Assembly (NCBI GenBank): GCA_049964795.1
Contig: JBMFWY010000013.1
Location: 1 to 23,427 of the forward strand
Direction: 5' to 3'
DNA: 23,427 nt
Source of the DNA: Candidatus Micrarchaeia archaeon
Lineage (GTDB): Archaea > Micrarchaeota > Micrarchaeia > Micrarchaeales > Micrarchaeaceae
Both the position numbers and the translations under genes were made by a program. The notes under the pieces were generated by a model. That model made no database searches. It worked only from the letters and a program-made list of their open reading frames with translations, and was not told where the DNA came from. Each line of letters opens with the position of its first letter. The first letter of the stretch is position 1. Below are positions 9,610 through 13,408 of the stretch, one piece after another.

Positions 9610-10008
9610 ATGATAGTTAAATTTACAAGGAGGGAAAGGGACTGTCTTGAAGAGATAAGGCGTGCCGAAGAAATAAATCTTACCCGGCTCAGCAGAGTTC
9701 TGAACATAAAGCCACCAACTACCCTTGCACTTGCGCAAAGGCTTGTCAAAAAAGGCATGGTATTGAGGGATAAAAACAATCTCTTCAGGCTTACGGAGGC
9801 TGGTGAGAAAAGCTTTGAAAAGATAATTTTCAGGCACCGCGTGCTCGAGACGCTCCTTGCAAACAATGGCGTTAGCGCAAATGATGCCTGCAGGGAATGC
9901 AAGAAGATGGATTTTCTAGTGAGCGACAAGGTGGTCAAAGAGCTGTTCAAAAAACTGCACGAGCCAAAAGATTGCCCTCATGGCAAACCTATAAGGATTA
10001 CCTCGTAG
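9610..10008 (+). CDS. DtxR/MntR-family metal-dependent transcriptional repressor (no C-terminal FeoA/SH3 domain)
   Basis: Winged HTH (LSRVLNIKPPTT...LVKKGMV...FRLTEAGE), RHRVLE dimerisation helix and C-terminal CPHGKPI signature. Confidence 0.9.
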   Translation: MIVKFTRRERDCLEEIRRAEEINLTRLSRVLNIKPPTTLALAQRLVKKGMVLRDKNNLFRLTEAGEKSFEKIIFRHRVLETLLANNGVSANDACRECKKMDFLVSDKVVKELFKKLHEPKDCPHGKPIRITS

Positions 10009-10033
10009 GATGAAAATGCTAAAGGTGTGATAG

Positions 10034-11014
10034 ATGTCTTTTGATTTTAGCCTCAATCTCTGGAACCCCACCAATGTAACAATACTGGAAGCAGTAATAT
10101 TGGCTTATGTTCTCGGCATAGTGCACGGTATAACTCCGGACGAACACACGTGGCCCATAACATTTTCTTACGCGGTAGGGAGCTACAGCGTTAAGGGCGG
10201 GGCAAAGGCCGGCCTCATTTTTTCCACGGGCTTCACGATCCAGAGAGCAATACTTTCCGAAATAGCCTTTTTTGCGCTTGCTGCAATTTTCATGACCAAT
10301 TTTGCATTCGGCATGACCTACATAGTAGTAGGTGTGGCAATGGCCGCAGCTGGCTTTTATATAGCAGAGCGTGGCAATTATCCACATTGGCATTACATAG
10401 AGGAAAAGCTTGGGGTTTTCTTCAGGATTCATAAGAAAGGCAGTAGGGAGCAGGAGAGAGAGTTCGAGCACAAGGTCAATCCAGCGCTCTGCTGCGAAGA
10501 CAAAATCTCCACGAAGCCGGTTCCTGCGAAGCTCGCACTCATACACGGATTTATAGCAGGGTTCGGCTTCGGGGCTTTTGCACTAATAATATATACCGTG
10601 CTCTCCCCTGCAATGCACTCCCCTTGGCTTGGCTGGGTTCCTGGAGCTCTTTTCGGCCTTGGCACTATGACAATGCAGGTCGCTTTCGGCTCAGTTTTCG
10701 GCGGCTACATGCGCAGGATTAAAAAGCTCACTGAGCAAGGGATGAAATTTGTCGCAGTTTCAATCTCAACTTACGTGCTGAAGTATGGCGGTCTGGCCTT
10801 CATAGTGGGAGGAGCGCTTGTGCTGCTGTTTCCGCAAATACTGGGCTTTGCGATAAATACTGGCATAAAGGTGCACAACCTAGATTCCTTGGGCTTGGGA
10901 TTCTTCCTAGTAATAATAAGCGTAGTAGTGATAGGAATCGCAGGCTACTTCAAAGCAATGCGCGATGTTGAAAAGCTAGGTTACATAAAAGCAGCGCAGG
11001 CGCGTGGGTCGTAA
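10034..11014 (+). CDS. Integral membrane protein, putative transition-metal permease (NiCoT/UreH/RcnA-like superfamily)
   Basis: About 8 TM segments. TM1 motif LGIVHGITPDEHTWP resembles the HAxDxDH/HxxxPGH motifs; second repeat LIHGFIAGFG; charged loop with His and CC. Starts 25 nt after the regulator with a GGTGTGA SD. Confidence 0.7.
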   Translation: MSFDFSLNLWNPTNVTILEAVILAYVLGIVHGITPDEHTWPITFSYAVGSYSVKGGAKAGLIFSTGFTIQRAILSEIAFFALAAIFMTNFAFGMTYIVVGVAMAAAGFYIAERGNYPHWHYIEEKLGVFFRIHKKGSREQEREFEHKVNPALCCEDKISTKPVPAKLALIHGFIAGFGFGAFALIIYTVLSPAMHSPWLGWVPGALFGLGTMTMQVAFGSVFGGYMRRIKKLTEQGMKFVAVSISTYVLKYGGLAFIVGGALVLLFPQILGFAINTGIKVHNLDSLGLGFFLVIISVVVIGIAGYFKAMRDVEKLGYIKAAQARGS

Positions 11015-11087: not shown

Positions 11088-13049
11088 TTAGTGTGCGCTT
11101 TTTGATTTTTCGCGCACGGCTTCCACCGCTTCCTTTCTTCCTTCAGCAGACTTGCTTCCGTTCAAGAGCAGCGAGTACACCATCATGTCTTTCACAGACC
11201 TGAGTAACGCTTCTTCGTTGATGCTCATGAAAAGTCCGCTGCTCGAAATTGGCAGGTTTGGATTCGCTATCGGCATTGCCTTCCTTGACCTTTCCAGCTC
11301 GAGGTATTCCTCCGCGCTTATGAAGCGCCTGCGATCCATTTCGTATCTCCAGTTTGCCCCTATGGCGTGCCGCAATTGCTCTATATTCACCTTCTTTGCC
11401 TTGAGCCATATATTGCTAGAAGTGCTTCCGTAGAAGTCTATAAGCATAGGCTTGTCGTTGTTTGCATTATAGATGCTGCTTGCTATTCCAAGAAGCGCAG
11501 ATCCCGTGTCTATATTGCCGATTTCCTTTGAGAATTCAGTAGCCTCCGCAATGTGTATGCCTTCTGCAAGCTTCTTAAATTCCTCAGTACTCTTCATCGA
11601 AGCGTTGTACGCCATATCCTCCTTTTCAAATGCGCTTATCAAATTGTTGAGCGGCGCTATTATCATATCTACCTCGCTGAGCTTTACAGGCGCATTGCTC
11701 TTTGATAAAGCCTCAAGTCCAGATATTGCGGATGCTATTGCATCTTTTGTTTTGCCACCTATCATATCGCCGTATTTCTGCAACACTTTGCGCATCGCCT
11801 CGGCAGAAAGCCCTGCCTGCTGCGGAAGCGCTTTCTCTACCGCATTTGCATATTTTGAAGCTATCTCCTTCCTTGTATTTTCACTGAAATCCGCATTTTC
11901 AAGCCTGTCAAGCTCCTCCTTTATTATGGTAAATGGAAGATATGCTTCTCCTATGTCATGGAGGAATTCGAACTCCGACTCCAGATTTGTAAAGTTCTCC
12001 AAAAAAGGCTCCTCTATTTTGAGCTGCGATCTTATCGATTCGCTAAGGTATAGATCATTCCTTGCAAGATGCCTCAAGAAGTATGCTATTGAATCTATCG
12101 GCATGTTGGCATAAGGTACATGCATTGCATGATCATACATCGCTATGCCTTCTATGCTGGACGGCGGATTCTCCATCTGCTTAAATATAGCTTTCAAGGC
12201 GTTGTATGCAAGGTAGTGGTACGAATAGTTGGAATGATTGCCAAGCACTATAGGGTCCGTATTTATTATGGAAAGCCCTTCGCCTATATCATATACAACT
12301 TTTTTCAGGAATTCGATGCTGTCTATGTTTGCTTCTCCAAGCAGCTTGGAAGAGATGAAAAGGCCGCCCTTTGCATTTGCTGCCGGCTTTATTATTACGG
12401 CTATTGCGCCCGCTCCGCCTGTCTCGTCTTCAGGCTTCCTCTTCCTGTAGCTGCCGTAGTCGCTTGCTATAAGCAGCTTCACGCTTTTTGGATTCATACC
12501 GTCTTTGGCGTCTTCGTATATCTCCTGGCCCGCAGAATCGCACGCGCTTTGATGCTGATTCGTGTGGACAGCCTTTATGTCCAAATCGCCGCTCGCCCTT
12601 TCATTTATATGCCCTATGTTTATGCCTTGCTTTGCAAGCACATCGCTCGCTGCGTTTACATATTTTATTATCTCCAACATCCTGTTTTTTGAAAGCTCCC
12701 TTGCAGATTCTGTTGCAAAGTCTGCCTCTGTTATTTCATCAAGCGAAATTCCTGGGTTGAATATGACAGCTTTTATTACTGCCATCGCGGCCAAAGAGAT
12801 AGGCGTCTCACCCAATTCAGGCAGCGAGCTGCTTTTCGCTCCAAGCCTTTTGAGTATGTGATCATACTCCCTTTCGGGATCGACGGGCTTGCCATGCCTT
12901 AGTATCGTTTTCGCCTTCTCCTTTGAGCTTATTGCAAGGCTGCCGAATGACATGCCTATTGCGGTTATGGCTATCTTGTACTCCTCTCTATCTTCGCCCT
13001 TTTCCACTTCCCTCAAGAAATCCTTTCGAATTGCATTTTCAGATTCCAT
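11088..13049 (-). CDS. Divergent hydroxymethylglutaryl-CoA synthase-like (thiolase-fold) enzyme with a large insertion
   Basis: HMGS motifs in the expected order: ATESA (Glu114), QSACDSA (Cys170), IASD, ETGGAGAIAVII, PIVLGNHS, MHVPY (His310), EIGNIDTGS (Asn512), FYGS, and RRFISAEEYLEL. Confidence 0.75.
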   Translation of the reverse strand: MESENAIRKDFLREVEKGEDREEYKIAITAIGMSFGSLAISSKEKAKTILRHGKPVDPEREYDHILKRLGAKSSSLPELGETPISLAAMAVIKAVIFNPGISLDEITEADFATESARELSKNRMLEIIKYVNAASDVLAKQGINIGHINERASGDLDIKAVHTNQHQSACDSAGQEIYEDAKDGMNPKSVKLLIASDYGSYRKRKPEDETGGAGAIAVIIKPAANAKGGLFISSKLLGEANIDSIEFLKKVVYDIGEGLSIINTDPIVLGNHSNYSYHYLAYNALKAIFKQMENPPSSIEGIAMYDHAMHVPYANMPIDSIAYFLRHLARNDLYLSESIRSQLKIEEPFLENFTNLESEFEFLHDIGEAYLPFTIIKEELDRLENADFSENTRKEIASKYANAVEKALPQQAGLSAEAMRKVLQKYGDMIGGKTKDAIASAISGLEALSKSNAPVKLSEVDMIIAPLNNLISAFEKEDMAYNASMKSTEEFKKLAEGIHIAEATEFSKEIGNIDTGSALLGIASSIYNANNDKPMLIDFYGSTSSNIWLKAKKVNIEQLRHAIGANWRYEMDRRRFISAEEYLELERSRKAMPIANPNLPISSSGLFMSINEEALLRSVKDMMVYSLLLNGSKSAEGRKEAVEAVREKSKSAH

Positions 13050-13408
13050 CGCATCGCCTTTTGTAGAGCTTCCACACGCAATTTATTTATATGACGATAT
13101 TATGTTCGCTTATTGTCAAATAAAGCGTTTGCGCAAACTAATGGATCAAATCGCCTGGATTCGCAAAGCGCAGGAGCTGCAGGAGTGTCAGCAGGGCAAA
13201 TTATTAATAAGCATCTGCATAATATTATATCGCCAATTTTCTGGCAGCGTCAAGCATTTAGGTGCCCGCGCAATTTTGGCATGAAGCCAAGCTGGTTTCA
13301 AAACTCTTCGAAGCACGAGTATTTTTAAACTTAGGGCGCCAATAATGAATGTGCGGCGCATGCCTTAAACAGGTGCAATCGGTTTGCAATTAATTGCAGG
13401 TGAACATT

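Follow-up and report, generated by a model that had tools for sequence, protein, structure and literature searches.

A long-form HMG-CoA synthase homologue of Micrarchaeota retains the conserved catalytic residues and carries an inserted four-helix bundle

The gene considered here encodes a 653-amino-acid homologue of 3-hydroxy-3-methylglutaryl-CoA (HMG-CoA) synthase (HMGS) and lies on contig JBMFWY010000013.1 of assembly GCA_049964795.1, from a Candidatus Micrarchaeia archaeon. The whole contig, 23,427 nucleotides, is referred to as the window (contig C13), and the assembly (724,721 bp in 34 contigs, 91.6% complete and 2.2% contaminated) as G000. The open reading frame (ORF) begins with ATG and occupies positions 11088..13049 of the reverse strand, stop codon included; all coordinates within and just upstream of the gene are on this strand. 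A first-pass annotation, made from the sequence alone, had described a giant, divergent HMGS-like enzyme that keeps Glu114, Cys170 and His310 and has altered active-site motifs. The ORF listing and scripted motif positions agree with this description, placing ATES at residues 112–115, ACDSA at 169–173, MHVPY at 309–313, GNIDTGS at 511–517 and FYGST at 539–543. Where HMGS signatures read ACxxG, GNxYTxS and YGSG, this protein reads ACDSA, GNIDTGS and FYGST.

The HMGS core is divided into two parts. The N-terminal part (residues 20–334; 12048..12992) contains E114, C170, Y201, F247, S273 and H310, and covers positions 15–304 of a family profile that align with residues 4–265 of the bacterial enzyme MvaS. 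The C-terminal part (residues 501–616; 11202..11549) contains N512, D514 and G541-S542, with profile positions 469–567 aligned to MvaS 296–392. Between them lies an insert (residues 335–500; 11550..12047), and the protein ends in a tail (residues 617–653; 11088..11201) that is basic at its end and has a terminal helix modelled with low confidence, the pLDDT being 43–58 over the last 30 residues. The relatives were compared in an alignment of 38 sequences that included two clades of long forms, A and B, which are described below, and shorter forms of ~450 amino acids. Invariant in all 38 are E114 (codon 12708..12710), C170 (12540..12542) and H310 (12120..12122), together with Y201, F247, G270, S273, P312, N512, S524, G541 and S542; the column of A169 is likewise invariant. 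We take the Glu, Cys and His columns to be catalytic, with E114 as general base and C170 as acetyl acceptor, and presumably the Tyr after DxAxY, the Phe of the DF motif, the Asn of GNxYT and the Ser of GSG have supporting roles; their counterparts here, Y201, F247, N512 and S542, are among the invariant residues. In the alignment of the family profile with PDB sequences, the C170 column falls on the Cys of Myxococcus MvaS, which is residue 115 after a 2-residue chain offset, and the title of PDB entry 5hwp names an "acetylated Cys115". By alignment and scripted position, D514 (codon 11508..11510) replaces the Tyr of GNxYTGS.

Standard family models do not recognize this protein. Pfam HMG_CoA_synt gave no match at E up to 1, and the NCBIfam models TIGR01835 (51.7 bits, cut-off 360.35) and NF041302 (39.1 bits, cut-off 800) score it far under their cut-offs, so that annotation pipelines miss it, as the first-pass annotation had anticipated. 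A search of the PDB with the 653-residue sequence alone returned marginal matches only. The profile of the 38 relatives matched Myxococcus MvaS at 1.2e-66, archaeal HMGS at 1.6e-28, and PksG and CurD at ~1e-26. An exhaustive HMMER scan over 1.84 billion cluster representatives yielded 34 proteins at E<=1e-3, of which 21 were at E<=1e-30, nearly all of them 590–733 amino acids long. A word-based search across 5.8 billion clusters returned 10 relatives, including one with the name "hypothetical protein [Candidatus Micrarchaeaceae archaeon]". Close relatives occur at 6 loci in species-representative genomes, all titled Candidatus Micrarchaeota or Micrarchaeaceae, in line with the DPANN affiliation implied by the first-pass annotation; to date the long-form lineage is known from Micrarchaeota alone. 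Excerpts of three papers that cover mevalonate genes of Micrarchaeota (PMC12892359, PMC11052028, PMC5864196) leave the long HMGS unmentioned, and no account of a long-form HMGS in Micrarchaeota or DPANN was found in the literature searched.

An AlphaFold2 model of the whole protein, computed from the alignment of relatives, is confident (mean pLDDT 90.1, pTM 0.89). In a Foldseek search, the top 30 or more matches were all HMGS or HMGS-like structures. Superposition with VIA-align gave a Z of 40.2 against MvaS 5hwo (root-mean-square deviation 2.6 Å over 397 of 418 residues), 38.6–39.7 against the S. aureus and E. faecalis enzymes, 32.3 against archaeal HMGS 6esq and ~27 against type III polyketide synthases. 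The predicted fold is of the MvaS type, and the superposition, taken with the alignment, suggests that E114, C170 and H310 would converge in space. Together with the 38-sequence alignment and the profile match to MvaS, it upholds the protein as a homologue of HMGS in which the Glu/Cys/His core is intact.

The length of the protein is due to one inserted helical domain of ~165 residues (335–500), lying between the His and Asn motifs, where profile positions 305–468 are unmatched in solved HMGS. The word "giant" was accurate as to size, but no extra enzyme accounts for it. In the model, the insert forms helices at residues 356–384, 390–429, 432–449 and 457–485; when residues 335–500 were modelled alone, a confident antiparallel four-helix bundle was again predicted (pLDDT 91.4). 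A structure search with the insert against 48,161 PDB representatives retrieved generic helical bundles only, with a best Z of 8.6 that is under the level the tool regards as meaningful for helical proteins. Residues F353, F362, H364, E368, R382 and Q410 are invariant within the subclade to which the protein belongs. The bundle is not a second catalytic domain but a clade-specific accessory that perhaps acts as a lid or serves in oligomerisation or docking.

A maximum-likelihood tree of 67 proteins (quick search, SH-aLRT support, rooted on canonical archaeal HMGS of the same order) separates forms of 450–550 amino acids, clade B (18 rows, support 100) and clade A (37 rows, support 97). Within clade A, the window protein falls in a fully supported subclade, A1, with 11 rows and a stem of length 0.73. 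Six differences at conserved positions are fixed in A1 relative to the other 56 rows: K64H, G68R, D118E, A191K, D246E and Y514D; R68 and D514 might conceivably contact each other. Among those 56 rows, Gly68 is kept in 95%, Asp246 in 96% and Tyr514 in 98%. The motif alterations reported by the first-pass annotation are real and, since they are fixed across A1 (Y514D in 11 of 11 rows), they are a feature of the lineage rather than private damage.

The gene is intact in relatives at 40–74% identity, and its ORF is unbroken in all seven A1 genomes (G000, G063, G109 and G121–G124) and in 10 database relatives. This conservation, together with a dN/dS of ~0.1, shows that it is not a chance ORF. Against the relative at 74% identity, Nei-Gojobori dN/dS was 0.095 for the HMGS homologue, a value similar to the 0.068 for the alpha subunit of a neighbouring oxidoreductase, 0.036 for the adjacent membrane protein and 0.007 for the adjacent CDC48; dS is saturated at ~1.9, which makes these values rough and an upper guide only. 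Identity to the closest relative is 98.5% for CDC48, 90% for the membrane protein and 74% for the HMGS homologue. The gene is thus fast-evolving and under purifying selection.

The distribution of long forms was surveyed by searching 121 genomes of the same order with the window protein, a clade-B protein and five families, the resulting counts depending on hand-set class thresholds and on related genomes that are not independent of one another. Clade A was found in 19 genomes (with HMG-CoA reductase, HMGR, in 12, thiolase in 8 and mevalonate kinase, MVK, in 13) and clade B in 41 (HMGR 20, thiolase 20, MVK 29). A canonical or near-canonical archaeal HMGS occurs in 35 genomes (HMGR 34, thiolase 35, MVK 29), and no HMGS-like gene was found in 34 (HMGR 6, thiolase 3, MVK 9). 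Genome G070, which is flagged as unpublished, contributes one clade-A genome (without HMGR, with MVK) and a single row each to the tree and to the insert alignment. HMGR and MVK are both present in 54 of the 121 genomes. Among these, 28 have a canonical archaeal HMGS, 20 have a long form alone, one has a form of ~540 amino acids alone and five have no HMGS candidate.

In G117, G083 and G029, the clade-B gene is the immediate same-strand neighbour of a thiolase gene. In G017, a clade-A gene lies between orthologues of the two genes found on either side of clade B on contig C16 of G000 and in G065, which indicates that the two clades share one gene slot. This shared slot, with its thiolase-adjoining clade-B members, and the 20 of 54 genomes that have a long form alone, point to HMGS as the ancestral role of the long forms.

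Some further observations concern the neighbours of the long forms. A DUF2666 gene lies tail-to-tail with the long HMGS match, less than 700 bp away, in 19 of 41 clade-B and 5 of 19 clade-A genomes (for example L007:10350-10805 on the reverse strand, on contig C16, and L031:1486-1950 on the forward strand). DUF2666 is also found in Methanocaldococcus, and it was mentioned in no paper found. It was considered as a DUF35-like partner and rejected as a clue to function, because it occurs in 109 of the 121 genomes regardless of a long HMGS and is convergent, not operonic; the pairing looks like conserved synteny. On the other side, a protein of ~365 amino acids with a C-terminal membrane helix is encoded directly upstream, on the same strand, in G017, G070 and G107. 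Coordinates of genes for this protein include L007:4377-5483 (forward; contig C16), L034:6963-8057 (reverse) and L015:3230-4369 (reverse). On contig C16 and in G065, a gene for a 910-amino-acid metallophosphoesterase stands between it and the long HMGS. The 368-amino-acid version of this neighbour was matched by nothing in Pfam, NCBIfam or the PDB sequences, and this, together with the C-terminal membrane helix, makes it no obvious reductase. It may be a membrane-anchored operon partner of the long HMGS.

Other observations concern the pathway genes that accompany clade B. Two single-contig genomes of the same family differ in what they keep: G065 has clade B and MVK with no HMGR or thiolase match, and G071 has clade B and thiolase with no HMGR match or MVK. 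As both are single contigs, such partial upper and lower pathways seem real rather than gaps in assembly. In G006, the HMGR match (C1:36745-37882) is split, and its second part contains four TAG stops and one TAA stop; this may be a decaying HMGR gene in a genome that keeps its clade-B HMGS.

Clade B is also represented in G000, by a 629-amino-acid protein with canonical motifs on contig C16 (L007:1-16138), and G000 is the only one of the seven A1 genomes in which clade B was found. The origin of this contig is questionable. Full-length paralogues elsewhere in G000 exist for 6 of the 13 ORFs of C16, compared with 0–7% of ORFs on most contigs, 14% on C18 and C20, and 22 of 657 genome-wide. Of these paralogues, the copies on C16 resemble genus g3, whereas those on other contigs are like the genus of the window. 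The closest relative, G121, matches C16 in scattered genes only, at 68–72% nucleotide identity. A 3.6-kb block of C16 (8371-11952), carrying the clade-B HMGS, DUF2666 and a 97-amino-acid ORF, is 87% identical in nucleotide sequence to G107, a member of another genus, and its flanks are 69–75% identical. Most probably C16 comes from a related Micrarchaeon and was co-binned with this assembly, or else it is a recent acquisition; tetranucleotide composition did not flag C16, so that a recent gain of 16 kb may be the explanation. The first-pass annotation had proposed a genome search for a second canonical HMGS. The assembly does contain one in the clade-B gene, but given the excess of paralogues, the resemblance to g3 and the poor match to G121, the contig is probably foreign, and C16 is therefore not relied on as a second HMGS of this organism.

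It is, on balance, somewhat more likely than not that the 653-residue protein is a functional condensing enzyme of the HMGS type that makes HMG-CoA, with acetyl-CoA and acetoacetyl-CoA as the presumed substrates. By the conserved residues, acetyl-CoA would acetylate C170, and E114 would then deprotonate the acetyl group. The enolate so formed, assisted by H310 and N512, would attack a beta-ketoacyl thioester at its keto group, acetoacetyl-CoA being the likeliest acceptor, and hydrolysis would free HMG-CoA. The first-pass annotation had left two alternatives, a cryptic entry enzyme of the mevalonate pathway and a neofunctionalised acyl-CoA condensing enzyme. The evidence at the level of the clades favours the former, while the latter is kept alive by the A1 lineage, in which thiolase was not found and HMGR was not found in six of seven genomes.

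Several observations weigh against HMG-CoA synthesis by this protein. In G000 (91.6% complete), searches that included tblastn with the proteins of relatives found no HMGR, and a Thiolase_N search and tblastn with the proteins of relatives found no thiolase, so that neither the step upstream of an HMGS nor the step downstream of it was found in the same genome. Among the seven A1 genomes, whose assemblies are incomplete (completeness figures are lacking for G121–G124) and for which genes are better called not found than absent, thiolase was found in none, the KAS III C-domain in none, HMGR in one (G109) and MVK in four. The scores of the family models, far under their cut-offs, and the fixed changes G68R, D246E and Y514D, at sites at least 95% conserved elsewhere, belong on the same side. 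Of the 57 sampled genomes of the order that carry a long form of either clade, 27 have no detectable HMGR, the single-contig G065 and G071 among them, in contrast to genomes with canonical archaeal HMGS, which is accompanied by HMGR in 34 of 35 genomes and by thiolase in all 35. In addition, clade A and a canonical or near-canonical archaeal HMGS coexist in five genomes (G015, G068, G081, G082 and G114), which argues against simple equivalence of the two.

The rest of the isoprenoid pathway is better represented in G000. One co-directional cluster on contig C3 (L005:7819-12854) contains genes for a Nudix hydrolase, a PAP2 phosphatase, DUF929, MVK, an MDD-family decarboxylase and isopentenyl phosphate kinase (IPK), and fits a mevalonate lower pathway of the haloarchaeal type; the gene upstream of MVK is the DUF929 gene, which is uninformative. 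The genome also encodes three polyprenyl synthases, a GGGP synthase, and copies of cis-prenyltransferase on C16 and C7. DUF35 OB domain and HMG-CoA lyase-like genes were not found in G000. Thus, among the pathway genes that the first-pass annotation had proposed seeking, HMGR was not found and MVK was. The organism is a DPANN archaeon, but the remark that many DPANN archaea lack lipid synthesis does not extend to this genome, which is not poor in lipid-pathway genes. Since thiolase and HMGR were not found, while MVK, the decarboxylase, IPK and the lipid genes are present, the gene for the 653-residue enzyme stands by itself as an "upper pathway" gene, although the genome clearly makes use of isopentenyl units. 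That Micrarchaeota can lose HMGR is already on record: according to passages of one report, Ca. Micrarchaeum harzensis has no HMG-CoA reductase homologue and probably depends on its host for lipids or precursors (Krause et al. 2022; PMC8975820).

The alternative that deserves most attention, possible but on the doubtful side, is that A1 is a neofunctionalised condensing enzyme with the HMGS fold, which has kept the acetyl-Cys/Glu chemistry and uses another keto acceptor or serves another pathway, an unrecognised mevalonate route included. This would explain why the enzyme persists under purifying selection where thiolase, KAS III and, in all but one genome, HMGR were not found, and why near-invariant sites carry the fixed changes G68R, D246E and Y514D. 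The presence of clade A beside a canonical archaeal HMGS in five genomes and the conserved, clade-specific insert with its six subclade-invariant residues are also in its favour. It must be set against this that all columns invariant across HMGS relatives are kept, that no alternative partner genes are consistently adjacent, and that no candidate for an alternative substrate or pathway emerged. Moreover, in G109 an A1 protein with R68 and D514 is the only HMGS-like gene found, alongside HMGR and MVK. A related and still more tentative proposal is that the insert-bearing variant with R68, E246 and D514 works non-canonically, either in an unrecognised mevalonate route or by condensing with a new acceptor to give a new product. 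Such a route could combine a non-homologous reductase with a C4 acceptor of different origin, or could rely on intermediates exchanged with a host. In the A1 lineage, the 653-residue type of protein is the sole thiolase-superfamily enzyme found, and the lineage keeps MVK (found in four of the seven genomes), the decarboxylase, IPK and genes for ether lipids. If either version were true, canonical pathway maps would misdescribe these symbionts.

It is highly unlikely that the protein is a decaying or non-catalytic relic of a lost mevalonate upper pathway. In favour of a relic, both pathway neighbours, thiolase and HMGR, were not found, and the gene diverges faster than the flanking CDC48 and membrane protein genes, but the ORF is intact in all seven A1 genomes and in 10 database relatives, the catalytic columns are invariant, dN/dS is low and the structural model is confident. 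Lower still is the likelihood of a beta-branching enzyme resembling HMG-acyl-carrier-protein synthases (PksG, CurD, VirC), which would act on carrier-protein-bound substrates. Although the VIA-align scores for VirC (Z 38.4), PksG (38.0) and CurD (37.3) come within ~2 units of those for HMG-CoA synthases, the profile match to PksG and CurD is some forty orders of magnitude weaker than that to MvaS, the neighbours include no polyketide genes (no search was made for a carrier-protein gene), and the genomes are just 0.4–0.8 Mb in size. HMG-CoA synthesis stands as the preferred reading of the 653-residue protein.

Comparison with known enzymes places the protein closest to MvaS (Myxococcus xanthus 5hwo/5hwp; mvaS of Enterococcus and Staphylococcus), with which it shares the fold, the best profile match, and the Glu/Cys/His, Tyr, Phe, Ser and Asn columns. 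It differs from MvaS in its length (653 amino acids against ~385–420), in the ~165-residue four-helix bundle, in having only 16–20% identity, in the Asp that replaces the Tyr of GNxYTGS, the Arg that replaces Gly68 and the Glu that replaces Asp246, and in belonging to a genome in which thiolase and HMGR were not found. Like the haloarchaeal-type HMGS (NF041302), it is bacterial-like rather than canonical archaeal, and G000 has the corresponding set of MVK, MDD-family decarboxylase and IPK. It is, however, ~210 amino acids longer and falls far below the cut-off of that model, and while the haloarchaeal-type pathway has a phosphomevalonate decarboxylase, the G000 enzyme can be assigned to the MDD family only, with a mono- or diphosphate substrate. 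Canonical archaeal HMGS (the 6esq/6et9 complex) belongs to the same superfamily and presumably shares its chemistry, but is far more distant in profile and structure, is ~350 amino acids long and adjoins thiolase in 33 of the 121 sampled genomes of the order, whereas the window gene has no adjacent thiolase or DUF35. The nearest counterpart in organization is clade B, exemplified by the C16 protein. Both clades consist of long forms (520–660 amino acids) confined to the same order, have the same catalytic columns and share the slot between the gene for the ~365-amino-acid membrane-anchored protein and the convergent DUF2666 gene. Clade B is nonetheless a separate, well-supported clade that is barely detectable from the window protein by BLASTP (E 0.023). 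Its members keep the canonical motifs ACxGG, GNxYS and GYGSG, score above the cut-off of Pfam HMG_CoA_synt_C and have a middle insert of lesser length.

These results bear on how isoprenoid supply is judged in DPANN archaea. Reconstructions decide between an organism's own lipid synthesis and host dependence by scoring mevalonate genes with standard models. Because the long-form family is unseen by Pfam and far under the NCBIfam cut-offs, the 20 of 54 genomes with HMGR and MVK that have a long form as their sole HMGS candidate would be mis-scored as being without the HMGS step. The persistence of A1 under purifying selection, where thiolase and mostly HMGR were not found, implies either a route or partner yet to be recognized or a new function. 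The 653-residue protein thus offers one concrete, expressible enzyme that bears on the supply of isoprenoid precursors in these symbionts.

The surroundings of the gene in the window are those of an archaeal housekeeping region. A Pfam scan of 23 ORFs identified a two-subunit 2-oxoacid:ferredoxin oxidoreductase, a DtxR-type regulator, a membrane protein without a family, CDC48, ribosomal protein S6e, aIF2-gamma, a CBS protein and Alba. The scan found no thiolase or DUF35 among these ORFs, and the whole assembly was equally negative. This bears out the first-pass observation that neither is adjacent: the gene lies in no thiolase/HMGS/DUF35 cluster, in the window and the assembly alike. It adjoins CDC48 divergently in 4 of the 6 A1 loci. 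An A/T-rich TATA-like box, ATATAAATAAAT (13081..13092), picked out by eye 32–43 nucleotides upstream of the ATG, is a possible archaeal promoter. A sigma-70 promoter and terminator scan of the window was set aside, as its model is inapplicable to archaea, and an Rfam scan of the window gave no RNA family match. On the other side of the gene (9610-11014, forward strand) lie a DtxR-family metal-dependent repressor and then a 326-amino-acid multi-pass membrane protein without a Pfam match. The latter, next to the HMGS gene, is 81–90% conserved in the two closest relatives, and a guess would be that the two form a metal transporter pair.

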